From an uncultured Coprobacillus sp. (lineage in GTDB: Bacteria > Bacillota_I > Bacilli_A > ML615J-28 > CAG-698), in the NCBI GenBank assembly GCA_964389905.1, contig CAYMGD010000007.1, forward strand, positions 483 through 64,482: a stretch of DNA of 64,000 bases. The letters are read 5' to 3'. How positions within the stretch are numbered: the first letter of the stretch is position 1; each line of letters opens with the position of its first letter. Shown one piece after another: positions 3,560 to 36,152 of this stretch. The notes beneath the pieces are model-generated. The model saw nothing but the letters and a program-made list of their open reading frames with translations, searched no databases and was not told where the DNA came from. The translations under genes were made by a program, and so were the position numbers.

Positions 3560-4951
3560 CTATTCATTAACAATTTTGTTAATTCTTTTTGTAAGTTTGG
3601 TAATATTATACCCTTCAATTTTCCTTATTGCATCTGTTAGAATCCTATCTTTTATAGCTGCAGCAGATTCTTTCACTTTATCCGCATTATCCATAATAGA
3701 TTCTGAAAGCTTACAAATTTTTTCTACTTCTTTATCGATTCTTCCAAAACACCTTGTAATAATATTCTCCTTAAAATTTTCAAATTCTTCTTTTATTTCT
3801 TCGGAAGATTTAAACTTTTCTCTTTCTTCGTTTTTCTCAAGTATTAGTTCTTGATATTTTTTTCCTAAACTCTCAATAAGACTCAGAAAAGTGATAAAAT
3901 ATTGAGGTCTTACAACATACATCTTTTCATAGCCAAATACTTTTCGTATTGGAGCATCATTTTCTTGGTTCCATTCAAGTTCACTTATAAGTAGAGCATA
4001 TTCACAATTTTTCTTTTCACGATCTTTATCTAGTTTCTTATAATGATCTTCATTTTTCTTCTTATTTTTAGATAGTGGATCTTCATTTTTCATTTCACAT
4101 ACAACTGATGATAATAAGTTTTCATCTTCATATTTATCTGATGAATAAACTTTAAAAATATAATCAGCTTTTGTTTTCTCTCCATCATCTCCTCGCACAG
4201 CAAGATTATCTTTTTCCCAAACACAATTAGTAAAGCCGCTAACAGCATGTGATTGATATTCATTGTTACACCAATTTTCTAATTCTTCACCTAATTGTTT
4301 TACGTTTTTTGAAGATTTTGCAAGCTTAAGATTATCTATTTCTTTCTCTTTTTTACTTAATTCATCTTTAAAAGCAACTTCTTTTTCTGATAATATTTTA
4401 GCTTTTTCAAGTTCAGCTTTTTCTTTGATATTTTCAAGTTCATTCTTTAACTTTGTTATTTCATTATCTTTGGCATTACATTTATCATTAAATTCATTTT
4501 TAGTACGAAGAATAACATTTTGAATTTGATTTTCGTTTTCTCTTTTAATATTTTCAATTTGATTCTTATAATTATTTATCTCTGTTTCAAGTTTATTTAT
4601 TTCTTTATTATGTTTTATTTCCTCTTCTTTTTTTGTTTTTTCTTCTATATTTTTAAGTTGTTCTTTTAATAAAATATTGTCTGAATTTAATTTTTCTTTT
4701 ATGTTATTAAACTCTTCTCTTTCTTGTGCTTTTGCTTCTTTAACCTTACTTTCAATTTCTTTTCTAAAACTTTTTTCTTGCTCATCTAAACGCTTTTGAA
4801 ATTTTCTTTCAACATCTTTATCAATAATTTCTTTTATATATATAGCATCTATTGTTGTAATATCTCTTAAATCTATATAATCACCTTTTTTAGCATCTTC
4901 CTCTAACACAATAGTATTTTGATCTTTTACAATAACTTTTATAGAACTCAT
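3560..4951 (-). CDS. DUF2130-family protein (long K/E-rich coiled coil plus C-terminal PD-(D/E)xK-like domain, RmuC-like architecture)
   Basis: C-terminal block (ADYIFKV...CEMKNE...KKKNEDHYKKLDKDREKKNCEYALLIS...MYVVRPQYFI) matches my recollection of DUF2130. GGAGG RBS and an extended -10 (TGaTATAAT, -10 at 4973-4978) lie upstream. Confidence 0.7.
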   Translation of the reverse strand: MSSIKVIVKDQNTIVLEEDAKKGDYIDLRDITTIDAIYIKEIIDKDVERKFQKRLDEQEKSFRKEIESKVKEAKAQEREEFNNIKEKLNSDNILLKEQLKNIEEKTKKEEEIKHNKEINKLETEINNYKNQIENIKRENENQIQNVILRTKNEFNDKCNAKDNEITKLKNELENIKEKAELEKAKILSEKEVAFKDELSKKEKEIDNLKLAKSSKNVKQLGEELENWCNNEYQSHAVSGFTNCVWEKDNLAVRGDDGEKTKADYIFKVYSSDKYEDENLLSSVVCEMKNEDPLSKNKKKNEDHYKKLDKDREKKNCEYALLISELEWNQENDAPIRKVFGYEKMYVVRPQYFITFLSLIESLGKKYQELILEKNEEREKFKSSEEIKEEFENFKENIITRCFGRIDKEVEKICKLSESIMDNADKVKESAAAIKDRILTDAIRKIEGYNITKLTKRINKIVNE

Positions 4952-5013
4952 AATTTATCCTCCATATAATTCATTATATCATTTTTTTTACTATTTTGCT
5001 ATAAAAAAAGATA

Positions 5014-5064
5014 TTTATCTAAAAAACACTTACCAAACGATAAAATCGTAAGATAAGTGTTATT
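5014..5064 (-). repeat. Direct-repeat copy 1, a rho-independent terminator hairpin on the minus strand
   Basis: 51 nt, identical to 7304..7353 except for one extra A in an A-run. Minus strand reads CACTTATCTTACGAT-TTT-ATCGTTTGGTAAGTG followed by TTTTT(T). Overlaps the stop of the 5063..5779 gene. Confidence 0.85.
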
Positions 5065-5779
5065 AATTCAAATTGTCTTGTTTTATCAAATCAAATATAA
5101 TAGAAATATTACTACACTGTTTTATTGAATTGCTATCACTAAATATATAGTTCCAACTCTCTTTATAATCATTTGGTATATCATTCATTGTTTTTCTTAA
5201 GATTTTCTCAAAGCCTAATGCATCAAGTTTATATTGCTTGTCAAACAAGTTCGATAATTTAATTTTTTGTTCGAGTGTAGCATTTTCTATTCCATACAAT
5301 GCGTGTTCCAAATTTCTTGAAAAATAGAACTTATAATATTTTATTCCACAAATTATATTTGTTTCAAATAGTTTCTTATATATTAATCGTTTTTTTTCAA
5401 ATCTTTTAGAAAAATATTCCTTATTATTAGTAAATAGTTTATTATCACAAAACTTATTAGCATAAAGTGAACTATCTTCAATTATTGATTTATCATCTAT
5501 AAATGCCCCATCTGTGTCAATAATGTGTACAATAGCTATATAATCTGTGCAAAACAAAAAATTTTTCTTTTTATGCTGGTCAATAATTTTTTCTATGCTT
5601 TTTATGCAATTATTCTCATTAATATTATCTTTATATGCTAAGTCTCCTGAGGTGACTTCAACAATTATATTTTTTATGTAATTATTAAAATAGTTTTTTA
5701 GCGATCTGTGAAGGGTAATATCGTCACTATCACCTTCACAAATTACAAATAAAATTTTAGGACTATTCTTCCTTTCCAT
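5063..5779 (-). CDS. Small TOPRIM-like (RloB / DUF4435-class) protein, second gene of the ATPase cassette
   Basis: 238 aa. Motifs in order: N-terminal ILFVICEGDSDD, central VHIIDTDGAF (DxD), then FSRNLEHALYG, as in TOPRIM/RloB-like proteins. Start overlaps the ATPase stop by 17 nt. Confidence 0.55.
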   Translation of the reverse strand: MERKNSPKILFVICEGDSDDITLHRSLKNYFNNYIKNIIVEVTSGDLAYKDNINENNCIKSIEKIIDQHKKKNFLFCTDYIAIVHIIDTDGAFIDDKSIIEDSSLYANKFCDNKLFTNNKEYFSKRFEKKRLIYKKLFETNIICGIKYYKFYFSRNLEHALYGIENATLEQKIKLSNLFDKQYKLDALGFEKILRKTMNDIPNDYKESWNYIFSDSNSIKQCSNISIIFDLIKQDNLN

Positions 5780-7172
5780 ATAAATATAAATCTCCTGCGT
5801 CTTTTAATGCCCTATATATTTCATATTCATCTATTGGATTTGATAAGTTTAATTCTCCTAAATATAAATCTCTTAAATATTTTTTTCTTAAATTATTCGT
5901 TTTCGCAACATATGGCATTTTTAGAAACCTATTTTCTTCATCATTTGTTGTAAAAATAATGTTTTCTTTAATTACTTCTAATGCGCGTAAGTTGTGTGAT
6001 GTAAATACCATTTGTCCAACACCTTTATCTTTAAAAACACTTAGAATATTCCCTAAGAGGAATTCAAAAATACCTGAATCCAATTCATCAATTATTAAAA
6101 TAGCATAAGGATTATTGAAAGCATCAACTAGTGAAGAAACAATTGATATTATTTTTTTTATTCCATCTGATTCTAAGTTTAATGGAATATTAAATTGGTC
6201 TTTTATCGAAACAAATTGATACCTGAAACAATACTCTCCATTTTGATCTGTTGTATCTCCCAAATTAAATAATGCTATTTTAGTTCCTGGAATCATTTTT
6301 TCTAGCACTAAATTTATCTCATTTATATATAAACTAATAGTTTTTTCGTATTTCTTTAGTAAAATTCCTTCACTAAATAATGATAATGCACCTTGTATTG
6401 AACTAACTTGACTGTTACTTTCGTTTTTATAGAAAAAGGGAATTGTATCTAAAGCAGCAATTTTACTTATTTCTCTATTATCATATAAATGATAATAATG
6501 TATGGAGTATATTCTCGCCATATCTATAAAATAACTAACATCTAAAAATTCTTTTGTATCAAAAAGTATTTTTTCAAATTCAGTGCTGAAAATAAAACTA
6601 CTATTGTTAGCTGTTCTTTGTCCCTTTAAATATATTAATTGGGGAAGTAAATTATTATTATCTTTAGTTAGTTTATTAAGGTTTGTTGATGGGCTTAAAA
6701 ATCTCATTAAATCACTGTCTTTTTTATTCACTTCAAAAATTGGTGCATTTTTTGTCCACACGTTGTCATTGTACTTTCGACGCCATAATCCTTCAGATGC
6801 TAATATTATTTTTCTATTTATATCGTCTTTTAAGAAATTTACATAATAATCATAAACATAGTTTTGTTCGTTACATTTGAAATAAACAGAAGCTTCAATT
6901 CTGCATATGTTGGATTTTTTTGAAATCTTCTCGTATAATTCATTATTAATTGTTTGCCCAGAAAAAATTGTTTTTAGAATTGAAAAGGCATTAATAATAG
7001 TTGATTTCGAACTACCATTAGGTCCATAGATACCTACAATATCAGATTTATCAAAGTTAAAAACACCATTTAATATTTTTTTATTTGATTCGAATTCTAT
7101 AGTTCCATCTTTTAAATTCATTAAGTTTTTAGCAGAAATCTTTAATATTCTAATATTACAATCCATAATCAT
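5763..7172 (-). CDS. ABC/SMC-type AAA ATPase (AAA_21/AAA_15-like), first gene of the cassette
   Basis: Walker A GPNGSSKST, signature-like ESDGIKK, Walker B AILIIDELDSG, H-loop FTSHN. Two SD-like sequences (AGGAGG, AAGGAG) lie upstream. The second ATG, at 7166, may be the true start. Confidence 0.85.
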   Translation of the reverse strand: MIMDCNIRILKISAKNLMNLKDGTIEFESNKKILNGVFNFDKSDIVGIYGPNGSSKSTIINAFSILKTIFSGQTINNELYEKISKKSNICRIEASVYFKCNEQNYVYDYYVNFLKDDINRKIILASEGLWRRKYNDNVWTKNAPIFEVNKKDSDLMRFLSPSTNLNKLTKDNNNLLPQLIYLKGQRTANNSSFIFSTEFEKILFDTKEFLDVSYFIDMARIYSIHYYHLYDNREISKIAALDTIPFFYKNESNSQVSSIQGALSLFSEGILLKKYEKTISLYINEINLVLEKMIPGTKIALFNLGDTTDQNGEYCFRYQFVSIKDQFNIPLNLESDGIKKIISIVSSLVDAFNNPYAILIIDELDSGIFEFLLGNILSVFKDKGVGQMVFTSHNLRALEVIKENIIFTTNDEENRFLKMPYVAKTNNLRKKYLRDLYLGELNLSNPIDEYEIYRALKDAGDLYLYGKEE

Positions 7173-7189
7173 AACTCCTTGACCTCCTA

Positions 7190-7218
7190 ATTATATCATA
7201 TTAAAAAATCATTGTCAA
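7190..7218 (-). promoter_or_regulatory. Perfect sigma-70/SigA consensus promoter of the cassette
   Basis: Minus strand reads TTGACA (7218-7213), a 17-nt spacer, then TATAAT (7195-7190), immediately followed by TAGGAGG. Confidence 0.65.
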
Positions 7219-7303
7219 TCTTTAACTTAATATTCGTATTTTTTATCGTTATTTCAGATTATATATTATATATTATTCGCATTATAGTTGAAAATATACA
7301 TTT

Positions 7304-7353
7304 TTTATCTAAAAACACTTACCAAACGATAAAATCGTAAGATAAGTGTTATT
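7304..7353 (-). repeat. Direct-repeat copy 2, terminator of the ABC-exporter operon
   Basis: 50 nt, the same sequence as 5014..5064. Lies 4 nt downstream of the stop of the 7358..9121 gene. Hairpin plus T-run on the minus strand. Confidence 0.85.
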
Positions 7354-7357
7354 TTAT

Positions 7358-9121
7358 TTAAATCACTTCGAATTGACTATTATATAATTCCGCATAAAAG
7401 CCATTTTGATTCATTAATTCATTATGGTTACCTTTTTCTATTACATCCCCATCACGCATTACTAAAATCAAATCTGCATTTTTGATTGTTGAGAGGCGAT
7501 GAGCAATAACAAAGCTTGTTCTTCCTTTCATTAATGTATCCATGGCATTTTGAATAATAACTTCGGTTCTTGTATCAACACTTGATGTTGCTTCATCAAG
7601 AATTAACATTGGCGAATTTTGAAGCATTGCTCGAGCAATAGTTAATAATTGTTTTTGCCCTGATGAGATTGATGTGCTTTCAGATAGTACTGTATCAAAT
7701 CCATGAGGAAGAGAATGAACAAATTTATCTAGGCCGCATAATTTACATACTCTTTCTAGTTCACTATCACTTATATCAGTCATATTATATACAAGATTTT
7801 CTCTAACTGTTCCTTCGAAAAGCCATGTATCTTGTAAAACCATAGCAAATATGTTATGAACATCTTCTCTCTTCATATCACTTATTGAAGTACCATCAAT
7901 GGTGATATTTCCGCTGTTTATTTCAAAGAACCTCATAAGAAGATTTACCATTGTTGTTTTACCTGCTCCTGTTGGACCAACAATTGCAACTTTTTGACCT
8001 GGTTTTATTTCAGCTGAAAAGTCTTTTATAATAACTTTATCTGGTGTATCAGGATAACTAAAACGAATATGCTCAAAGCATACACTTCCTTTGATTTCTT
8101 TTTCGCCACTTTCTTTATCGCTTTCATCACTTAACTCTTCTGCTTCAAGGAAATCAAAAATACGATGTGCTGAAGCTGAGGCTGTTTGTAAATTTGTTAA
8201 GCCTTGAGCAATTTGTGTTAATGGTGATGTAAACAAACGAACATAGAAGATAAATGCTACTATTACATCAAAACCTATTGTTCCTTGAATAGCAAAGATT
8301 GAACCAAACACACATACTGCTACATATGAAATATTTCCAATAACGCTCATTAAAGGTTGCATAATTCCAGATAAGAATTGTGATTTCCAGTTTGCATCAT
8401 AAACGTTCTTATTAAGTTTATCAAATGATTCTTTTGTCATTTGGTCAGCACGACTAATTTTTATAACTTCATGTCCTGAGTAGTTTTCTTCAATAAAACC
8501 ATTAAGTTCTCCTAAACTCCTTTGGCGAGCCGCAAAATGTCTTTGTGATTTACCCATTATAACTACAGTTAAAAGTAAGCCTACAATAGTTATTCCTAAT
8601 GATATTGAAGCTAATCGCCATTCTGTTACAAACATCATAATCAAACAACCGATAAATTGTGTTACAGCACTTATGATAGTTGGCAAACTATTAGTTAAGC
8701 CTTGTTGGAGAGTTGAAACATCATTTGTTATTCTACTTAAAATATCTCCTTGTGATGTTGTATTAAAGTATTTTTGAGGAACCAGATTAATCTTTCTTGA
8801 AAGTTCTGCTCTCATCTTATATGACATTTTAAGAGTTACCGTAGACATTATGTATTGTTCGATAAAACCAAATATCGCACTTAAACAATATAATATAAGA
8901 AGCATTATACCAATTTTTGATATAGCATCTATATCAATAGTTGTTAACAATCCATCAGAAATAATAGCTGCAATTTCACCCAGTTTATCAGGTCCTATAA
9001 TAGTAATTACTGAACTTAAGGCAGCAAGTATTAGAGCTATAATAACAAATACAATACTAGATTTTATATAATTAGAACTTCTTTTAATTGCTGAAGATAA
9101 ACTTTTCTTATTTTTTGCCAT
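7358..9121 (-). CDS. ABC exporter, fused permease/ATPase (type I, heterodimer partner)
   Basis: Six-TM N-terminal half, Walker A GPTGAGKTT, signature SSGQKQ, Walker B LILDEATS. Confidence 0.9.
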   Translation of the reverse strand: MAKNKKSLSSAIKRSSNYIKSSIVFVIIALILAALSSVITIIGPDKLGEIAAIISDGLLTTIDIDAISKIGIMLLILYCLSAIFGFIEQYIMSTVTLKMSYKMRAELSRKINLVPQKYFNTTSQGDILSRITNDVSTLQQGLTNSLPTIISAVTQFIGCLIMMFVTEWRLASISLGITIVGLLLTVVIMGKSQRHFAARQRSLGELNGFIEENYSGHEVIKISRADQMTKESFDKLNKNVYDANWKSQFLSGIMQPLMSVIGNISYVAVCVFGSIFAIQGTIGFDVIVAFIFYVRLFTSPLTQIAQGLTNLQTASASAHRIFDFLEAEELSDESDKESGEKEIKGSVCFEHIRFSYPDTPDKVIIKDFSAEIKPGQKVAIVGPTGAGKTTMVNLLMRFFEINSGNITIDGTSISDMKREDVHNIFAMVLQDTWLFEGTVRENLVYNMTDISDSELERVCKLCGLDKFVHSLPHGFDTVLSESTSISSGQKQLLTIARAMLQNSPMLILDEATSSVDTRTEVIIQNAMDTLMKGRTSFVIAHRLSTIKNADLILVMRDGDVIEKGNHNELMNQNGFYAELYNSQFEVI

Positions 9122-10887
9122 TATTCCCCTCCTTTTGATAACTCATTTTCACTTAATTGTGATTTAGCTATCTCTTGATATACAGTACAATTTTTAATTA
9201 ATTCTTGATGCTTTCCAATGCCTACTATTTCGCCTTTTTCGAGTACAATAATCTTATCAGCATTACGAATTGTACCAATTCTTTGAGCAACAATTATTTT
9301 TGTTGTATCATTATATTTTTCTAAAAGTTTTTCACGCAAAAGAGCATCAGTACGAAAATCTAAAGCTGAAAACGAATCATCAAAAATAAGAATTTCTGGG
9401 TTTCTAGCTAAAGCTCTAGCAATTGAAAGTCTTTGTTTTTGGCCACCTGACACATTACGACCAAGTTGAGCTATATGGTAATCTGATTTTTCTTTTTTCT
9501 TCTCAACAAATTCTTTTGATTGTGATACTTCTAATGCCTTTTCTAGATCTTCATCTGTAAAGTTTTCTTTAGCGTTTCCAAAGAATATGTTATCCTTGAT
9601 TGTTCCTGAAAAGAGCACTGCTTTTTGGGTAATATATCCTAGCTTATTATATAAAGCTGAGAATTTATAATCTTTAACATTAACTCCATCGACAAGAACA
9701 CTTCCTTCTGTTACATCATATAAACGAGGAATTAAGCTTATTAAAGTGGTTTTTCCGCTTCCTGTTGCCCCAATTATAGCTAATGTTTCTCCTTTATTAA
9801 TTTTAAAATTAATATTTGATAATTCACGTTCACTAGAACCAGCATATTTAAAACTAACATTTCTAAATTCAACGCTTCCTTCTTCTAATCCTTCTTCGAC
9901 GCTTCCTTCTTCGATTTCAGCTTTTTTGCTTAAAACTTCATTTATACGCTCCGCAGAAACTTGTGCTTGAGGAGCCATCATAAATATCATAACTAACATC
10001 ATAAAAGACATTACAATGTAAGTTGCATAAGTACTAAAAGCTAATATCTCACTAAACATTGCTACTCGTTCGGCAGCATTTATTACCGATATATTATTAA
10101 CTAATGCTGCTCCAACCCAATATATAGCTAGAGATAATCCACTCATTCCCAAACTCATAGTTGGACTTATTAAAGCAAACATTCTTTGATTTTTAATTTG
10201 TAAGTTAAACATTTCTTTGCTAGGCTTGTCAAATTTATCATTTTGATATTCTTCAGCATTAAAAGCATGAACAACATTTATTCCTGTTAAGTTTTCACGG
10301 GCTACACGATTAATTTTATCTGTCATCTTTTGGACTTTTCTAAACCTTGGAATACAAATACTCATAACAATGAATACTATAGAACAAATTGCAACAACAA
10401 AAATTGCTGTAACGATTGACAACTGCCAGCTTTTGCCTAGGATTTTAATAATTGCCCAAATAGCCATTATTGGTGCTTTAATAAACATCTGTAATCCCAT
10501 CGAAACTAACATTTGTACTTGCGTAATATCATTAGTTGTTCTTGTAATCAAGCTAGGAATAGAAAATTCCTGCATTTCTTCTTTACCTAAATCAATTACA
10601 TGATAGAATAATTTTTTTCTAACTGTGTAACTAAAACCAGAAGCTGTTTTTGCTGCCAAGAAACCACATATAACTGCTAACACACCACTTGTTAAGGCGC
10701 AAGCAATCATTTTCAAACCAACTTCAACAATCGCATCAGTTGTCCCTGATGTTTTTATTAGTTTGGTTAATTCAGTCATATAATCAGGCAATAATAAATC
10801 AAAATATACTTGACCAATTATCAGTACGCAGCATATAATTGTCATTATAATTTCTTTTTTTTGTAAATTCTTTAATAGTTTTACCAT
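9121..10887 (-). CDS. ABC exporter, fused permease/ATPase (heterodimer partner)
   Basis: TM domain, Walker A GATGSGKTT, signature SGGQKQR, Walker B LIFDDSFS. Its stop codon overlaps the start codon of the downstream partner by one nucleotide. Confidence 0.9.
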   Translation of the reverse strand: MVKLLKNLQKKEIIMTIICCVLIIGQVYFDLLLPDYMTELTKLIKTSGTTDAIVEVGLKMIACALTSGVLAVICGFLAAKTASGFSYTVRKKLFYHVIDLGKEEMQEFSIPSLITRTTNDITQVQMLVSMGLQMFIKAPIMAIWAIIKILGKSWQLSIVTAIFVVAICSIVFIVMSICIPRFRKVQKMTDKINRVARENLTGINVVHAFNAEEYQNDKFDKPSKEMFNLQIKNQRMFALISPTMSLGMSGLSLAIYWVGAALVNNISVINAAERVAMFSEILAFSTYATYIVMSFMMLVMIFMMAPQAQVSAERINEVLSKKAEIEEGSVEEGLEEGSVEFRNVSFKYAGSSERELSNINFKINKGETLAIIGATGSGKTTLISLIPRLYDVTEGSVLVDGVNVKDYKFSALYNKLGYITQKAVLFSGTIKDNIFFGNAKENFTDEDLEKALEVSQSKEFVEKKKEKSDYHIAQLGRNVSGGQKQRLSIARALARNPEILIFDDSFSALDFRTDALLREKLLEKYNDTTKIIVAQRIGTIRNADKIIVLEKGEIVGIGKHQELIKNCTVYQEIAKSQLSENELSKGGE

Positions 10888-10904
10888 TAATTAACCTCCT
10901 CGTA

Positions 10905-11357
10905 TTAATAATTATTATTCCAAACATCATCGATATTTTTCTTAAGCATTACAAATACCCGTTGTAGTGCTCCTACATCTTCAGTACTAATACCTTCTAA
11001 TAATCTTTCTGAGAAATCTGTTTGAATAACTTTTCCCTGCTCAACAATTGGTTCAGCAACATTAGTTAGTTCAAGCACTACTTTTCTTCTATCATTAGGA
11101 TCATCTAATCGTTTCAAATATCCATCTTTTACAAGTCTATCAATATGTACTGACACAATTCCAGCCTTTAAACCTCTAAATTTGCATATATCTTTAGCTG
11201 TTGCGTTAACAGGATTATTTGCAATAAACAAAAGAATATCAACTGCCAAAGGTGGTAAATCATAGTTTCGACATATTGGTTGTAATAAAAAGTGATATGA
11301 TTCGATTAGTTTACTAGCATTCTCAAATACTTCTGACATTTTGAAATTTTTATTCAT
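10905..11357 (-). CDS. MarR-family transcriptional regulator
   Basis: 150 aa with winged-HTH wording (DRLVKDGYLKRLDDPNDRRKVVLELT). Sits upstream of the two ABC exporter genes. Confidence 0.85.
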   Translation of the reverse strand: MNKNFKMSEVFENASKLIESYHFLLQPICRNYDLPPLAVDILLFIANNPVNATAKDICKFRGLKAGIVSVHIDRLVKDGYLKRLDDPNDRRKVVLELTNVAEPIVEQGKVIQTDFSERLLEGISTEDVGALQRVFVMLKKNIDDVWNNNY

Positions 11358-11378
11358 ATATTTCTTCCCCTTTTTATT

Positions 11379-11414
11379 AATATTAGATATTCTAATATTA
11401 GAATATCTAATATT
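11379..11414. promoter_or_regulatory. Perfect 36-bp palindrome, probable MarR operator
   Basis: AATATTAGATATTCTAAT|ATTAGAATATCTAATATT is exactly self-complementary. Lies between a -10 TATAAT (11423-11428, with -35 TTGCTT at 11446-11451 on the minus strand) and the marR start. Confidence 0.6.
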
Positions 11415-11720
11415 GCTACAATATTATATACTTATTAATATAATAAAGCAAGTATTATTTTTAAAACTATATACACACACAAACAAAAATGTCATAAATT
11501 TCTTGATATTTTTATTATTTATATTTTTGTTATATTCATACATTTTTATTATTTGTTAACAAAAGAGTTGGTTTTTAAATACGCATCTAAATATGAAGTT
11601 TTTCATTTACAAAACTGTAGTAAATCAAGAAAAATTTGTTAATTTTTATTAAAAAGAAAAGAAAAACGTGTTATTATTCATTGAAAAAAAGTGTTATACT
11701 ATTTTTATCAATTAAATAGG

Positions 11721-13025
11721 ATGGTGATATTCTTGAAACGAAATGCAATTTATGAACTTAATAAATGGAAAAATGATCCTGAACGCAAACCTATTGTACT
11801 TAGAGGTGCAAGGCAAGTCGGCAAAACTTGGTTAATGAAAGAATTTGGAAAAAACTATTATGAAGACTTTGTTTACTTTAACTTTGATGAAGATGATGAA
11901 CTTAAGTCAATATTTGAAATAAATAAAAATCCACATCGCATTATTGATTTACTTTCTATGATTAGTAATAAGAAAATTGAACCCGAAAGAACATTAATCA
12001 TTTTTGATGAAATTCAAGAATGTCCTGATGCTTTAAATACTCTTAAGTACTTTAAAGAAAAAGCTAATGAATATCATGTTATTGCTGCAGGAAGCCTTCT
12101 TGGCACACTTCGTGCAAAACCAAAATCATATCCTGTGGGAATGGTAAATCTTTTAGATATTAATCCTTTAACTTTTAGCGAATTTTTAGAAGCTACAGAT
12201 GTAAATCTATATACTTATTATGAAAGTATAAAAAAAGACCAACAAATTGAGGAAATTTTTCATAATCGTTTATTAGAAGCATACAATTATTATCTTATTA
12301 TTGGAGGTATGCCTGAATGTGTTTCATCATGGATCAAATACAAAGATCCTCTTAAAGTATCACAAATTCAAAAAGAACTTATTGAACTTTATGAGAATGA
12401 TTTTTCCAAACACAATGGAAAAATTAATAGTGGCCGCATTCTTATGGTATTTCGTAGTATTGTTTCTCAACTAGCTAAATCTAATGAGAAGTTTATGTAT
12501 GGAGCTGTACGTGAAGGCGGAAGAGCAAGAGATTTTGAAGAAGCAATTGAGTGGCTTGTTTCGGCAGGAATACTAAATCGTATTTATAATGTATCAAAGA
12601 TGGAGCATCCATTATCAGCCTTCGATAAACTTAATCAATTTAAACTTTTTGTATTCGATACAGGTCTTCTTAAACATATGGCTGGTATTGACAATAGTGC
12701 AATACTTTTAAAAAAAGACTTTCAGTTTAAAGGCCCCCTTACTGAAAATTATGTTCTCCAACAACTTCGCGGACAATTTGCTGTTGAACCAAGATATTAT
12801 TCAGACAAAGGAAATGAAATTGATTTTATAGTACAATATGGTATGGAAATAATTCCGATTGAAACAAAAGGTGGTGAAAATAAATCCGCTCCATCTTTTA
12901 AGAAATATATTACTGAACATAAACCAAAATATGCTTTTCGTTTTTCTAAGCGTGGTTATCGCAAAGATGGTAGTTTTACAAATCTTCCCCTTTATTTAGT
13001 TCAAAAAATGAAAGAATTATTATGA
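11721..13025 (+). CDS. AAA_14 + DUF4143 family ATPase
   Basis: Walker A GARQVGKTW, Walker B IIFDEIQ, C-terminal DUF4143-like region (NEIDFIV...IPIETKGG). The start is ambiguous: ATG 11721, or TTG 11733 after AGGATGGTGA. Confidence 0.8.
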   Translation: MVIFLKRNAIYELNKWKNDPERKPIVLRGARQVGKTWLMKEFGKNYYEDFVYFNFDEDDELKSIFEINKNPHRIIDLLSMISNKKIEPERTLIIFDEIQECPDALNTLKYFKEKANEYHVIAAGSLLGTLRAKPKSYPVGMVNLLDINPLTFSEFLEATDVNLYTYYESIKKDQQIEEIFHNRLLEAYNYYLIIGGMPECVSSWIKYKDPLKVSQIQKELIELYENDFSKHNGKINSGRILMVFRSIVSQLAKSNEKFMYGAVREGGRARDFEEAIEWLVSAGILNRIYNVSKMEHPLSAFDKLNQFKLFVFDTGLLKHMAGIDNSAILLKKDFQFKGPLTENYVLQQLRGQFAVEPRYYSDKGNEIDFIVQYGMEIIPIETKGGENKSAPSFKKYITEHKPKYAFRFSKRGYRKDGSFTNLPLYLVQKMKELL

Positions 13026-13036
13026 TTATAAACTTT

Positions 13037-13062
13037 AAAACGACTCAACAGAGCCGTTTTTT
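13037..13062. terminator. Bidirectional hairpin between convergent genes
   Basis: AAAACGACTC-aaca-GAGCCGTTTT, with one mismatch and A/T runs on both sides. Confidence 0.5.
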
Positions 13063-14254
13063 ATAAATACATTCTTTTTAAAAGTTCCTTAAATATTTTA
13101 AAAATACTTGCTTCAGTTACATCTTCATCAGTTATTAATTCTACTTTATTATAATATTTTCCATCGACATATATTTCCATTTCTCCATATACTCTATTTT
13201 TAATATTATCATAAACTTTAATTTCTTTTGTTACTTCACTGATTTTATTACCTTTTTTGGTAAAATAATTAATATCTTGAGAAACTACTACATTAAAATT
13301 ATTAGGTGAATATTTGATATCGCTTATTTCATCAACTATTTCTCCTTCCGAAACAATATTTGTCATTTCATAAGTAGAAGCACCATAATTTAACATTGTC
13401 ATAATTTCACTATTTCTTTTCCCAGCAGATTCAGCTCCCATTACCACTGCCACAAATCTGATACCATTCTTTTTAGAAGTTGCAGTGAGGCAGTATCCAC
13501 TTTCACTAGTCCAACCAGTTTTTAATCCATCAACTTCTTCATAAAAGCGTACCAGTTTATTTGTATTAACTAACCAAAACTCTTTATCAGTTCCTTTTCT
13601 TAAATAATCTTCATATATGTTTGTATATTGCAATATTAAAGGATAATTTGTAACTAAATATGAACTCATAATAGCCATATCATAAGCACAAGAATAGTGA
13701 TTTTTAGCTGGTAAACCATTAGGATTAACAAAATTAGAATTTAAACAATTTAATTCACGAGCTTTATCATTCATCATTTGTACAAACTTTTCAACGCTTC
13801 CGCCAATTGCCTCAGCAAACACCACTGCTGCATCGTTTGCACTAGTAATTGCTAGCCCCTTTAGAAGGTCTTCAACACTCATCTCTTCGCCTGTTTCTAA
13901 GTAAATAGTCGTTCCGCCCATCTTCGAAGCATTTTCACTTGCTTTAAGTTTATCTTCTAATTTTAGTTTACCACTTTCAATAGCTTCCATTATTAAAATC
14001 ATTGTCATTACCTTGGTCATACTAGCTGGTGCTCTTGCTTCAGTACTACTTTTTTCATAAATTATGCTATTTGTACTTGCTTCAATTAAAATTGCACTAG
14101 GAGAGGATAAATTAAACTCTACATCATCGATTAATTCACTTTTTTCAATTACTCTAACTCCAGTCTCAATTGTTCCTTCATATCTACTTGCTTTAGTATT
14201 TGTTATTGCTAGTAAGCATATCATCATTAAAACTATAATATATATTTTTTTCAC
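13061..14254 (-). CDS. D-alanyl-D-alanine carboxypeptidase (PBP5-type, S11)
   Basis: Signal peptide plus SxxK (SMTK), SxN (SAND) and KTG (KTGWT) motifs. Confidence 0.88.
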   Translation of the reverse strand: MKKIYIIVLMMICLLAITNTKASRYEGTIETGVRVIEKSELIDDVEFNLSSPSAILIEASTNSIIYEKSSTEARAPASMTKVMTMILIMEAIESGKLKLEDKLKASENASKMGGTTIYLETGEEMSVEDLLKGLAITSANDAAVVFAEAIGGSVEKFVQMMNDKARELNCLNSNFVNPNGLPAKNHYSCAYDMAIMSSYLVTNYPLILQYTNIYEDYLRKGTDKEFWLVNTNKLVRFYEEVDGLKTGWTSESGYCLTATSKKNGIRFVAVVMGAESAGKRNSEIMTMLNYGASTYEMTNIVSEGEIVDEISDIKYSPNNFNVVVSQDINYFTKKGNKISEVTKEIKVYDNIKNRVYGEMEIYVDGKYYNKVELITDEDVTEASIFKIFKELLKRMYL

Positions 14255-14353
14255 TTTTTATCACCACTTAATAATATTATCTTTATAAGTGATAAATTCT
14301 TTTTTTATGAAAAAAAGTTCAATTTATGCGATTTAAAGCACAAATCAAACTAA

Positions 14354-15535
14354 TTATTTAATTGAACTAATTCTATTCTTTAACTCTTTTTTTTGATTAT
14401 TTATATTTGTATTGATTTCTAATATTTTTTCTTTTGTTAGAGTATTTTCTAATATTTGTTTCAAATTATCTTGAGCACCACTGATGTAATTTTCTGCTTT
14501 TTCTTTAGCTTTTGTAAAATCGAAATCATAAGGAAAGTCTTTTTCAAGTTCTTCTAGTTTAGCATAAATAGTATCAATATTAATGATTATATTATTAACT
14601 TTTGCATAATTATTTTTTTCTTCATTTAGAAGATTGCTATATAATTGTTTTAAGGCATCCTCTTGAAGATTTAAAGCACTATATAATTCATTTGTATCTT
14701 TTTTAGATATTTGAGCACGTAAAACAAGAAATTCCACTTTACCTTTAAAATAGTTTTCTTTGGCATAAGCATAATTTGTATTAGCATCAAAAGACAAATT
14801 CTCTTCTGTCTTAAACTCACCAATAGCTTCTTCTAAATCATTTACTAGTTCTTGATATTTTCTTTTTAAATCAGCATACTCATCATCAATACTTTCAAAA
14901 AGAATATTTTTATATTTTGTTTTAAATTCATATTCCTTTAGTGATGCATAAAAATTTTCTAAGGCTAAAGAAGCAAACTGCGAGTTTTCTAAAACTGCTT
15001 CTTTAACGTTTAGCATAAGTTCTTTTGTATCCATTGTTTCAATGGTTTCCTTAGCAAGCCATGGTTTATTGCTTAATACTTTGGTAACTAAATAGTCTTT
15101 TTGAAGAGTATCTTTGATTACTGTTTTTGCATTAAGTTTTAAATTAGATATTGCATCTTGTATGCTTTCATTAATTTTCATTTCGATGATGTGTAAATCA
15201 TCTTTTGCCATAGATCCTGTAACACTTATTTCTATAGTTTGAGAAAACTCTTTTATTGAACCAGTCACAATATACCCTAAGTCTTTATATTGTTTAATAA
15301 TTTTAGGAAGAACATCTTCAAGCTTTTTCTCATTATATACTTCATCATAAAGAACCATTTTACCTTCATCATTTAATCCATTAATAGCTTTTATAGTATT
15401 GCTACTATCAATAACAATTTCTATTTTTGGTTCAAAATCTAATAGTACATAAGTAAACTCTTCTTCTTTTGCTTGGCATGAAATCATATTAACAAATAAA
15501 AAGCACAGACACAAGAAACTAACTAACTTTTTCAT
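14354..15535 (-). CDS. Lipoprotein, helical/coiled, unknown function
   Basis: Signal peptide with lipobox-like NMISC. Its start overlaps the GH13 gene end by 17 nt, so it is probably the last gene of the glycogen operon. Confidence 0.6.
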   Translation of the reverse strand: MKKLVSFLCLCFLFVNMISCQAKEEEFTYVLLDFEPKIEIVIDSSNTIKAINGLNDEGKMVLYDEVYNEKKLEDVLPKIIKQYKDLGYIVTGSIKEFSQTIEISVTGSMAKDDLHIIEMKINESIQDAISNLKLNAKTVIKDTLQKDYLVTKVLSNKPWLAKETIETMDTKELMLNVKEAVLENSQFASLALENFYASLKEYEFKTKYKNILFESIDDEYADLKRKYQELVNDLEEAIGEFKTEENLSFDANTNYAYAKENYFKGKVEFLVLRAQISKKDTNELYSALNLQEDALKQLYSNLLNEEKNNYAKVNNIIINIDTIYAKLEELEKDFPYDFDFTKAKEKAENYISGAQDNLKQILENTLTKEKILEINTNINNQKKELKNRISSIK

Positions 15536-28722: not shown

Positions 28723-29255
28723 TTGTATATTATACAACAATTTAATGTGTTTGTCAATTGTTTTTTTATCAATTGACACTGTTTTTTATCAACAGTAAGC
28801 ATTTTATTAGAATATAATTTATTTAACTTATTGTATGTTTTCCCAAGTTCTATATTATGGCGATATACTTTCATCTCATATATTTCTTCAACACTATATG
28901 GAAGATTATAAAGGCTTTCACGAGTTATTATAACATAATAATTACTAGTATTACGTATTGTTCTCGCAAACTCTTCACTCTTTATAAATTTATTTCCTTC
29001 ATCAATAAATATGATACTATCTTCAATCCTTTCAATACGAGCTTGCCAATCATTCGTTGTTAATACATGACATTTTTTATCACATTTAATCTTAACACCA
29101 CTTAGTTTACCAAGTTCTTCATAATCAGAAATCAAATTAATAAGAGTTGTTTTACCTGTAGCACTATTTCCTCGAATAATAGTTATATTCCTAGTAATAT
29201 CAAATTTAAATGAAATTTTTTGATTACTTATTTCTATGTGATATTTTCCAACCAT
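28719..29255 (-). CDS. Mini P-loop ATPase (178 aa), partner of the DUF4869-like gene
   Basis: Walker A GNSATGKTT, Walker B IIFIDEG, then YYVIITRES. GAGGTG RBS. Starts 11 nt after the upstream stop. Confidence 0.7.
   Translation of the reverse strand: MVGKYHIEISNQKISFKFDITRNITIIRGNSATGKTTLINLISDYEELGKLSGVKIKCDKKCHVLTTNDWQARIERIEDSIIFIDEGNKFIKSEEFARTIRNTSNYYVIITRESLYNLPYSVEEIYEMKVYRHNIELGKTYNKLNKLYSNKMLTVDKKQCQLIKKQLTNTLNCCIIYK
28729..28757 (-). promoter_or_regulatory. Perfect consensus promoter for the infC operon
   Basis: Minus strand reads TTGACA (28757-28752), a 17-nt spacer, then TATAAT (28734-28729). Lies inside the last codons of the upstream ATPase ORF. Confidence 0.65.
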
Positions 29256-36103: not shown

Positions 36104-36152
36104 TAGAACGGTTGTTCTAGAATATTATATACCTAATATTTATACGTGTCAA
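36104..36152 (-). promoter_or_regulatory. Consensus promoter plus inverted-repeat operator of the TetR operon
   Basis: Minus strand reads TTGACA (36152-36147), a 17-nt spacer, then TATAAT (36129-36124). The palindrome TAGAAC-n4-GTTCTA (36104-36119) follows immediately downstream. Confidence 0.6.

Follow-up and report, generated by a model that had tools for sequence, protein, structure and literature searches.

Modules that join an ATP-binding cassette (ABC) ATPase to a TOPRIM protein, such as OLD, Gabija, PARIS and AbiL, are among the most widespread immune modules of bacteria, and their sensing and effector logic is only now emerging. The combination of an AAA15/21 ATPase with a TOPRIM protein (OLD-TOPRIM, DUF4435, RloB or DUF4276) is an established defence architecture (PMC11464382; bioRxiv 10.1101/2024.01.29.577857; PMC13064643), and TOPRIM-Old, DUF4435, RloB and DUF4276 are already listed as partners of these ATPases (PMC11464382). 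AbiL and HEC-01 have both been described as ABC ATPase and TOPRIM pairs (PMC13064643; bioRxiv 10.1101/2024.01.29.577857). The TOPRIM effector of PARIS, AriB, is kept sequestered by AriA; once a phage protein has triggered its release, AriB cuts tRNA (PMC11464382, PMC12409363). Here we describe a two-gene cassette in a 64,000-nucleotide stretch of contig CAYMGD010000007.1 from an uncultured Coprobacillus sp.; this whole stretch is referred to as the window. The first gene encodes an ABC ATPase of 469 amino acids and the second a protein of 238 amino acids, the small protein. We consider it probable that the cassette is a constitutively expressed, translationally coupled anti-phage module of the abortive-infection type, of the ABC-ATPase plus split-TOPRIM kind that is called 'OLD-like' and includes AbiL, PARIS, HEC-01 and MADS3-4.

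The cassette shares its layout with AbiL (AbiLi plus AbiLii/RloB; Lactococcus) and RloA/RloB, which are two-gene operons of an AAA_21 Rad50-like ABC ATPase followed by a TOPRIM-type protein of about 200-240 amino acids (PMC13064643 and PMC11464382). The likeness extends to the proteins themselves, since AbiLi is the best of the 20 PADLOC models matched by the cassette ATPase (2.6e-29) and an RloB-like phage protein heads the structural matches of the small protein in BFVD, a library of viral structures. However, the small protein fails both the AbiLii and the RloB (PF13707) models, and thus PADLOC would not call AbiL here; a tblastn search of plasmids with the ATPase returned no lactococcal AbiL. 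With PARIS (AriA plus AriB/DUF4435; class 4 OLD-like) the cassette likewise shares an ABC ATPase and a separate, putative TOPRIM effector. AriA is the second-best PADLOC model for the ATPase (4e-16), the β1-β3 core of the small protein aligns to DUF4435 with EGxxD and DxD in register, and a homologue of the pair adjoins a PARIS-like pair on a Bacillus plasmid. The differences from PARIS are nonetheless substantial: the small protein has 238 amino acids whereas DUF4435 proteins have about 300, the region C-terminal of DxD is unaligned, and the DUF4435 (PF14491) hidden Markov model (HMM) matches neither the window protein nor 70 members of its family. In addition, the insert in the cassette ATPase is predicted to be compact and alpha/beta, whereas the coiled-coil bundle of PARIS builds a hexamer (PMC11464382). 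Because its partner protein fails the AbiLii/RloB and DUF4435 model tests, the cassette belongs to neither system, although by analogy it would resemble both in its working. The small-protein family would then be a further, unmodelled partner type of AAA15/21 ATPases.

Other described pairs are more distant. HEC-01, MADS3-4 and PDC-M38/PDC-M07, which are candidate ABC-ATPase plus TOPRIM/DUF4276 pairs in PADLOC, follow the same two-gene logic and give weak model matches, but all of these matches are weak and the window small protein itself matches none of the models. HEC-01 is a candidate system whose models the pair weakly matches, whereas AbiLi, the best match of the ATPase, comes from an established Abi system. 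OLD class 1 (P2 Old) and class 2 (Gabija GajA) combine an ABC ATPase with TOPRIM nuclease chemistry, and some members of the small-protein family weakly match OLD-like_TOPRIM, as the ATPase weakly matches GajA. In those systems, however, the domains are fused, whereas in the cassette they are separate overlapping open reading frames (ORFs), and Gabija also needs the helicase GajB. Among the 128 nearest neighbours of homologous pairs, no helicase family recurs, and a Gabija reading was rejected for want of a helicase. A reading as a type I-B retron (class 3 OLD) was rejected for want of a reverse transcriptase: no such family recurs among the same 128 neighbours, and an Rfam search gave no match inside the cassette. 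Finally, a type IV toxin-antitoxin or AbiEii reading, which derives from the Pfam description line of AAA_21 only, was rejected because there is no AbiEi partner.

A self-contained two-gene unit

The cassette is a real, self-contained two-gene unit, with a perfect consensus promoter ahead of it and a strong terminator behind it (Table 1). The original prediction for this locus had placed two ORFs on the reverse strand, and both lie exactly where it put them; the 3' end of the ATPase gene overlaps the small gene by 17 nucleotides (5763-5779). The motifs that it had quoted are likewise all present in the translations, namely GPNGSSKST, ESDGIKK, AILIIDELDSG and FTSHN in the ATPase and ILFVICEGDSDD, VHIIDTDGAF and FSRNLEHALYG in the small protein. 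Because these motifs fall on positions that are invariant across the two families, they are not a matter of chance. The predicted TTGACA-17-TATAAT promoter is also there, a perfect match to the consensus that carries an extended -10 TG besides. Three perfect sites of this kind occur in the window, compared with 0.07 expected by chance. The other two are at 28729-28757 and 36124-36152 (-), and the former lies just upstream of an L20 leader (Rfam RF00558, 28584-28711), i.e. ahead of the L20-leader operon. This excess over chance, together with the position of one site before the L20-leader operon, suggests that these sites probably serve as genuine and strong promoters.

The start of the ATPase probably lies slightly downstream of the first ATG. 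Of the two Shine-Dalgarno-like sequences ahead of the gene, AAGGAG stands 8 nucleotides upstream of a second ATG at 7166, and the consensus of ATPase homologues, xMxxxIRIL, begins at the corresponding position, Met3. Because of this spacing and this consensus, we favour the second ATG as the true start, giving a protein of 467 amino acids.

The two genes are found together in all of the genome loci retrieved. These loci were retrieved with the small protein alone; an ATPase homologue lies immediately upstream on the same strand in 80/80 of them, and the paired ORFs mostly overlap or abut. A Bacillus megaplasmid and a Clostridioides phage-plasmid keep the pairing too, as do those IMG/VR contigs that are long enough to show it. 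A correlation of similarity to the window pair alone is uninformative for distant loci, and we therefore used a full pairwise Mantel test instead; across 82 loci, the distance matrices of the ATPase and the small protein were correlated with r = 0.94 (p = 0.001). There is no conserved third gene, as each Pfam family is represented in 5 or fewer of the 128 nearest neighbours. The ATPase and the small protein are an obligate, co-evolving unit. A separate observation concerns the [Eubacterium] eligens megaplasmid NC_012780.1 (locus L092), where an ATPase homologue at 7986-9386 has no detectable small partner and adjoins an IS256 transposase, a dynamin-family gene and a WYL-domain gene. This lone ATPase is probably a decayed copy.

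Both sequence and model identify the larger protein as a Rad50/SMC-type ABC ATPase with intact catalytic motifs. The original prediction of an ABC/AAA_21 ATPase with a long insert is borne out by a match to Pfam AAA_21 (PF13304; 47.7 bits against a gathering cut-off of 27, E = 3e-12) and by structural matches of the Rad50 and PtuA type. Residues invariant in 75 homologues include K56 of Walker A, S335 and G337 of the signature, D362 and E363 of Walker B, D365 of the D-loop and H393 of the H-loop, and the insert between Walker A and the signature motif runs to about 280 residues. Beyond AbiLi and AriA, the ATPase weakly matches the PADLOC models mad3, PDC-M38A, PDC-M07A and HEC-01A, in addition to GajA. 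Its AlphaFold model (predicted local distance difference test score, pLDDT, 81; predicted template modelling score, pTM, 0.81) gave 154 Foldseek matches in the PDB at E <= 1e-3, headed by Rad50 heads (5e-13) and followed by the PtuA ATPases of retrons and Septu and by SMC heads. At the sequence level, a comparison with PDB entries gave P-loop-level matches only and no close solved relative.

The small protein and the TOPRIM fold

The original prediction had noted that the small protein fits no one family cleanly, and this was correct: it scores below threshold with every model of Pfam, PADLOC, NCBIfam and PHROGs. The window protein has sub-threshold Pfam matches to Toprim (0.026) and DUF4276 (0.11), it matches 0 PADLOC families, and NCBIfam and PHROGs returned nothing. 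It is nonetheless a member of a large family. A word-indexed search recovered only 25 clusters, whereas an exhaustive profile search yielded 1,587 (representative clusters, 50% identity), and 556 of these had E <= 1e-30. Pfam domains are absent from all of the 120 best relatives listed, and where a relative bears a name, which few do, it is 'hypothetical protein'.

Aravind, Leipe and Koonin reportedly defined the TOPRIM domain in 1998 by a conserved Glu ending strand 1 and a DxD ending strand 3 of a β-α-β-α-β-α-β core. The corresponding signature in DnaG and GyrB is EGxxD followed by DxD. In 84 homologues of the small protein, the invariant residues are E15, G16, D19, D46, H85, D88, D90, N156, H159, K172 and W209. 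The AlphaFold model of the small protein (pLDDT 91, pTM 0.87) predicts the order β1 (9-15), α1, β2 (37-43), α2, β3 (80-88), hairpins, α3 (120-139) and β4 (146-153), followed by a helical C-terminal half. In this model E15-G16-x-x-D19 is at the C-terminal end of β1 and D88-x-D90 at the C-terminal end of β3, such that the invariants of the 84 sequences and the predicted secondary structure together place motifs and strands as in the 1998 description.

Weak profile matches point in the same direction. When 70 family members were scanned singly against Pfam, 14 matched DUF4276, 12 Toprim and 6 OLD-like_TOPRIM, all below threshold, and the PADLOC matches in these 70 were to mad4 (6 members), PDC-M38B (6), HEC-01B (4; best 5.5e-5) and AbiLii (1; 0.026). 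In 5 of 10 arbitrarily chosen members, the best or sole weak match was to RloB, OLD-like_TOPRIM, Toprim or DUF4276, and the TOPRIM-type alignments in these five share a register, starting at model positions 1-7 and at about residue 10 of the protein. The RloB match was found in one of the ten, at 0.095, far under the cut-off of 31.5 bits. The RloB-like protein that heads the BFVD matches is itself a marginal match (probability 0.97, E = 4.3e-3, TM about 0.4).

A further comparison was made with DUF4435. We built a profile from five genuine DUF4435 (AriB-type) proteins encoded by PARIS-like pairs on plasmids; a metagenome search for more DUF4435 sequences to enlarge it found none. Aligned to this five-sequence profile with hhalign, the family profile gave a probability of 54% (P = 1.3e-4, score 37.9) over 66 columns from β1 to β3, with EGxxD on EGxxD and DxD on DxD. 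Controls scored far lower, at 15.0 +/- 2.5 for 60 column shuffles (maximum 21.6), 18.4 for the reversed profile and 16.6 for an unrelated ATPase profile, and the DUF4435 score is about 9 standard deviations above the shuffled controls.

The predicted TOPRIM-like character of the small protein is thus borne out at the level of remote homology only, by motif placement, by weak matches in the same register, by the RloB-like BFVD match and by the DUF4435 alignment. The original prediction had named the lack of any TOPRIM-like profile match as a finding that would speak against it; weak TOPRIM-type matches exist. From sequence and model, we conclude that the N-terminal 150 or so residues probably make up a TOPRIM core of divergent sequence, whereas the helical half at the C-terminus belongs to this family only. 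This half has its own invariants (N156, H159, K172, W209, S218 and N224) and resembles nothing in the libraries searched.

Distribution, neighbourhoods and apparent insertion

The small-protein family is an accessory one. At least 514 matches, or about 0.3%, were found in a scan of 185,579 species genomes (one genome per species), a minimum, given that only two peptide patterns were scanned for. Most hosts are gut or rumen Bacillota, with scattered occurrences in Spirochaetes, Ruminobacter/Aeromonadales, Olsenella, Selenomonadaceae and a Bacteroides contig. Such patchy spread is typical of accessory genes, and gene neighbourhoods differ between loci. According to the original prediction, a universally conserved core locus with no association to other defence genes would have argued against a role in defence; the homologues are patchy and accessory.

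Some of the neighbours are themselves related to known or candidate defence genes. Among the 128 nearest neighbours from 32 loci, matches at E <= 1e-8 were to mad3 (6), AriA (4), mad8 (4), ATPase-Toprim_I-B (3) and AbiLi (3), and to PtuA, GajA, SoFic, PDC-S04 and NsnB (2 each). One such arrangement is on the Bacillus mycoides plasmid NZ_CP136374.1 (locus L091), where positions 6723-14908 hold, in order, a Schlafen/AlbA_2 ATP-binding protein, the pair homologue, an AAA_15 plus DUF4435 PARIS-like pair, a 160-amino-acid hypothetical protein and XerS. This is a compact, defence-island-like stretch. At locus L008, a second pair, of an AAA_21 ATPase and a 174-amino-acid protein, and several AAA_14/DUF4143 genes lie near the pair.

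Within the window, the cassette appears to have been inserted recently. A 51-nucleotide direct repeat (43 identical nucleotides, a 1-nucleotide indel and 8 nucleotides more) occurs in exactly two copies, each forming a terminator, and the two copies bracket exactly the promoter, the ATPase gene and the small gene (Table 1). The first two bases of the copy at the far end lie in the stop codon of the small gene. No transposase or integrase is found within the bracketed cassette. Judged from the sequence, the cassette appears to have been inserted downstream of the terminator of an ABC exporter, with duplication of the terminator at its far end. A scan of metagenome contigs for the duplicated terminator, as a search for an empty site, gave 0 matches, and exact-protein look-ups showed that neither the flanking exporter nor the flanking DUF2130 protein is on record. 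Because the empty-site search found nothing, the direct repeat itself is the evidence for insertion. In 79 other loci, direct repeats do not generally flank the cassette, and a dedicated terminator-targeting mobile element was rejected on that ground.

Table 1. Features of the cassette in the window (position 1 is the first nucleotide of the 64,000)
Feature	Position	Strand	Basis and remarks
Sigma-70-type promoter TTGACA-17-TATAAT, extended -10 TG	7190..7218	-	12/12 match
Two Shine-Dalgarno-like sequences	7175..7188	-	AGGAGG 7188-7183; AAGGAG 7180-7175; direct sequence reading
Rad50/SMC-type ABC ATPase gene (AAA_21; 469 amino acids, probably 467)	5763..7172	-	Pfam, PADLOC, AlphaFold/Foldseek, invariant motifs; proposed role sensor/regulator subunit
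Gene of the TOPRIM-like 238-amino-acid protein	5063..5779	-	Invariant motifs, model, hhalign; proposed role nuclease effector
Intrinsic terminator of the cassette, second repeat copy	5013..5064	-	Hairpin 5025-5061, then U-tract; RNA fold -16.8 kcal/mol, z = -5.5
First terminator and repeat copy	7304..7353	-	Immediately follows the upstream exporter gene (ABC type) at its stop codon; hairpin, then U-tract; -16.5 kcal/mol, z = -5.1

Several further observations concern the surroundings of the pair. Directly downstream of the cassette is a gene for a 463-amino-acid coiled-coil and DUF2130 protein (3560-4951, -), and about 4.5 kilobases upstream is one for an AAA_14 plus DUF4143 ATPase (11691-13025, +). 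DUF2130 and DUF4143 are both classed as PD-(D/E)XK (PMC3424549), and the two genes are thus candidate members of that superfamily. The region may represent a small accessory-gene island of the nuclease type. Genes for AAA_14/DUF4143 ATPases also lie within a few kilobases of the pair in unrelated genomes, at L070:5716-7017, at L004:4065-5261 and in three copies at L008, as in the window. The copy at L070 is 78% identical to that of the window, whereas the ATPase/TOPRIM pair at L070 is only about 30% identical, which suggests that horizontal transfer carries the DUF4143 gene independently of the pair, possibly to hotspots that both share.

Other pairs of an AAA_21-like ATPase and a small partner stand beside loci of the family at L008:5998-7678 (-), L070:3691-5630 (-) and L015:3551-5931 (+), with partners of 174, 224 and 198 amino acids. 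The 174-amino-acid partner at L008, the one of the three that was scanned, had no match in Pfam. These may be further unannotated pairs of an ABC ATPase and an effector. In a Clostridium/Lacrimispora clade (L017, L066, L067, L080 and L082), the pair occupies one conserved chromosomal position beside pnp, which encodes polynucleotide phosphorylase, and rpsO; this points either to an integration hotspot particular to the lineage or to vertical descent inside the clade.

Proposed mechanism and competing readings

By analogy with PARIS, we infer that the two proteins form a physical complex, in which the Rad50-like ATPase would bind the small protein, hold it inactive and act as the sensor of infection. 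On sensing a phage-derived trigger, the ATPase would release or activate the small protein. The latter could then act as a metal-dependent phosphodiesterase of the TOPRIM type, using E15/D19 and D88/D90, and cleave nucleic acid. Candidate substrates would be host tRNA or other RNA, as for AriB, or DNA, as for OLD and GajA, and the resulting defence phenotype would be a halt to phage replication at a cost to host growth. A sentinel complex made in a fixed ratio would be consistent with the strong constitutive promoter and with the overlap of the genes.

A number of results weigh against a defence module with a TOPRIM effector. No Toprim-type Pfam model (Toprim, OLD-like_TOPRIM, DUF4276, RloB or DUF4435) reaches its gathering score in the small protein or the members scanned. 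A Foldseek search of the PDB with the small-protein model gave no significant match and no solved TOPRIM structure; the best matches were generic flavodoxin-like folds, lumazine synthase and PurE (TM about 0.3), with the PARIS complex in 26th place (probability 0.08). Compared with PDB sequences, the family profile gave chance matches only, such as integrin I-domains. When the small-protein HMM was run on the full set of 1,252 ORFs from the fetched loci, it revealed no cross-family link to DUF4435 or other partner proteins, and against a genuine DUF4435 protein it gave E = 2.6. The genomic evidence also has its contrary side. The family was found in 10 plasmid records, 6 IMG/VR contigs and 1 of 50,697 phage records, and it is rare on phages. 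Judged from raw counts, defence enrichment among the neighbours appears moderate, and the genes beside many loci have housekeeping roles, such as pnp-rpsO at 5 of the 32 loci. The immediate context in the window is one of ABC exporters and DUF2130, the neighbours being two ABC exporters, MarR and the DUF2130 gene. Lastly, the single published test of HEC-01 showed no protection (bioRxiv 10.1101/2024.01.29.577857).

Other explanations account for parts of this evidence. The pair could be a toxin-antitoxin or addiction module of mobile DNA, with the small enzyme as toxin and the ATPase as antitoxin, serving to stabilise an element or in conflicts between elements and having no dedicated anti-phage role. 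The compact, overlapping two-gene operon and its strict co-evolution would suit such a module, as would the copies on megaplasmids and a phage-plasmid and the inserted look of the cassette in the window, and PARIS itself formally behaves as a type II toxin-antitoxin system (PMC13064643). However, most copies are chromosomal and have no obvious mobile-element genes nearby, and every characterised case of the ATPase plus TOPRIM architecture is a phage-triggered defence (PMC11464382). We regard this explanation as unlikely, and toxin-antitoxin behaviour and abortive-infection defence are in any case compatible with each other. It is alternatively conceivable that the small protein has a Rossmann- or TOPRIM-like scaffold and is not a nuclease at all, acting instead as a phosphatase, a nucleotidyl-transfer enzyme or a ligand-binding module with another biochemical output, in defence or otherwise. 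That Foldseek matched no solved TOPRIM nuclease, that only β1-β3 (66 columns) aligns to DUF4435 and that the helical C-terminal half has its own invariant residues and is unlike anything in the libraries would all be in keeping with this idea. Yet the invariant EGxxD and DxD are the metal-binding signature of TOPRIM, placed where the fold requires them, and all of the weak family matches are to nuclease-type TOPRIM families that partner ABC ATPases, which makes a non-nuclease quite unlikely.

A housekeeping role in DNA repair or recombination, in the manner of RecF/RecR or SbcCD, in which an SMC-like ATPase works with a TOPRIM or nuclease partner, appears very improbable. The best solved-structure matches of the ATPase are Rad50/Mre11 complexes, and one RefSeq annotation carries the Gene Ontology term for double-strand-break repair, but a gene pair that is present in about 0.3% of species genomes, with patchy spread and neighbourhoods that are not conserved, is hard to reconcile with housekeeping. 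The insertion-like flanks with their duplicated terminator and the occurrence on plasmids and a phage-plasmid likewise argue against it. Thus, an anti-phage module of the OLD-like kind remains the reading that we favour.

A more far-reaching proposal, which we put forward tentatively and which may well prove wrong, is that the small protein founds a distinct and unrecognised family of TOPRIM-derived effectors, comprising some 1,600 clusters (50% identity) that come mainly from anaerobes of the gut and rumen, and having a unique C-terminal helical domain with invariant N, H, K and W. Together with its dedicated ATPase, it would constitute a separate split OLD-like immune class that current defence finders miss. 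If true, this class could have a trigger and a substrate specificity of its own, for example a particular tRNA or RNA, unlike those of PARIS, AbiL and Gabija.

Because both the architecture and the likely mechanism are already known, the cassette is not conceptually new, and its architecture will be unsurprising to specialists. What is new is a large, gut-centred family of putative effectors that is missed by Pfam, PADLOC, NCBIfam and PHROGs. Since none of these collections has a model for it, defence annotation of the gut microbiome systematically misses the family, and adding it would improve the catalogues of defence systems for gut anaerobes. The cassette would also provide a compact new ATPase/TOPRIM pair for comparing how the inserts of such ATPases sense phage and which nucleic acids TOPRIM effectors cut.

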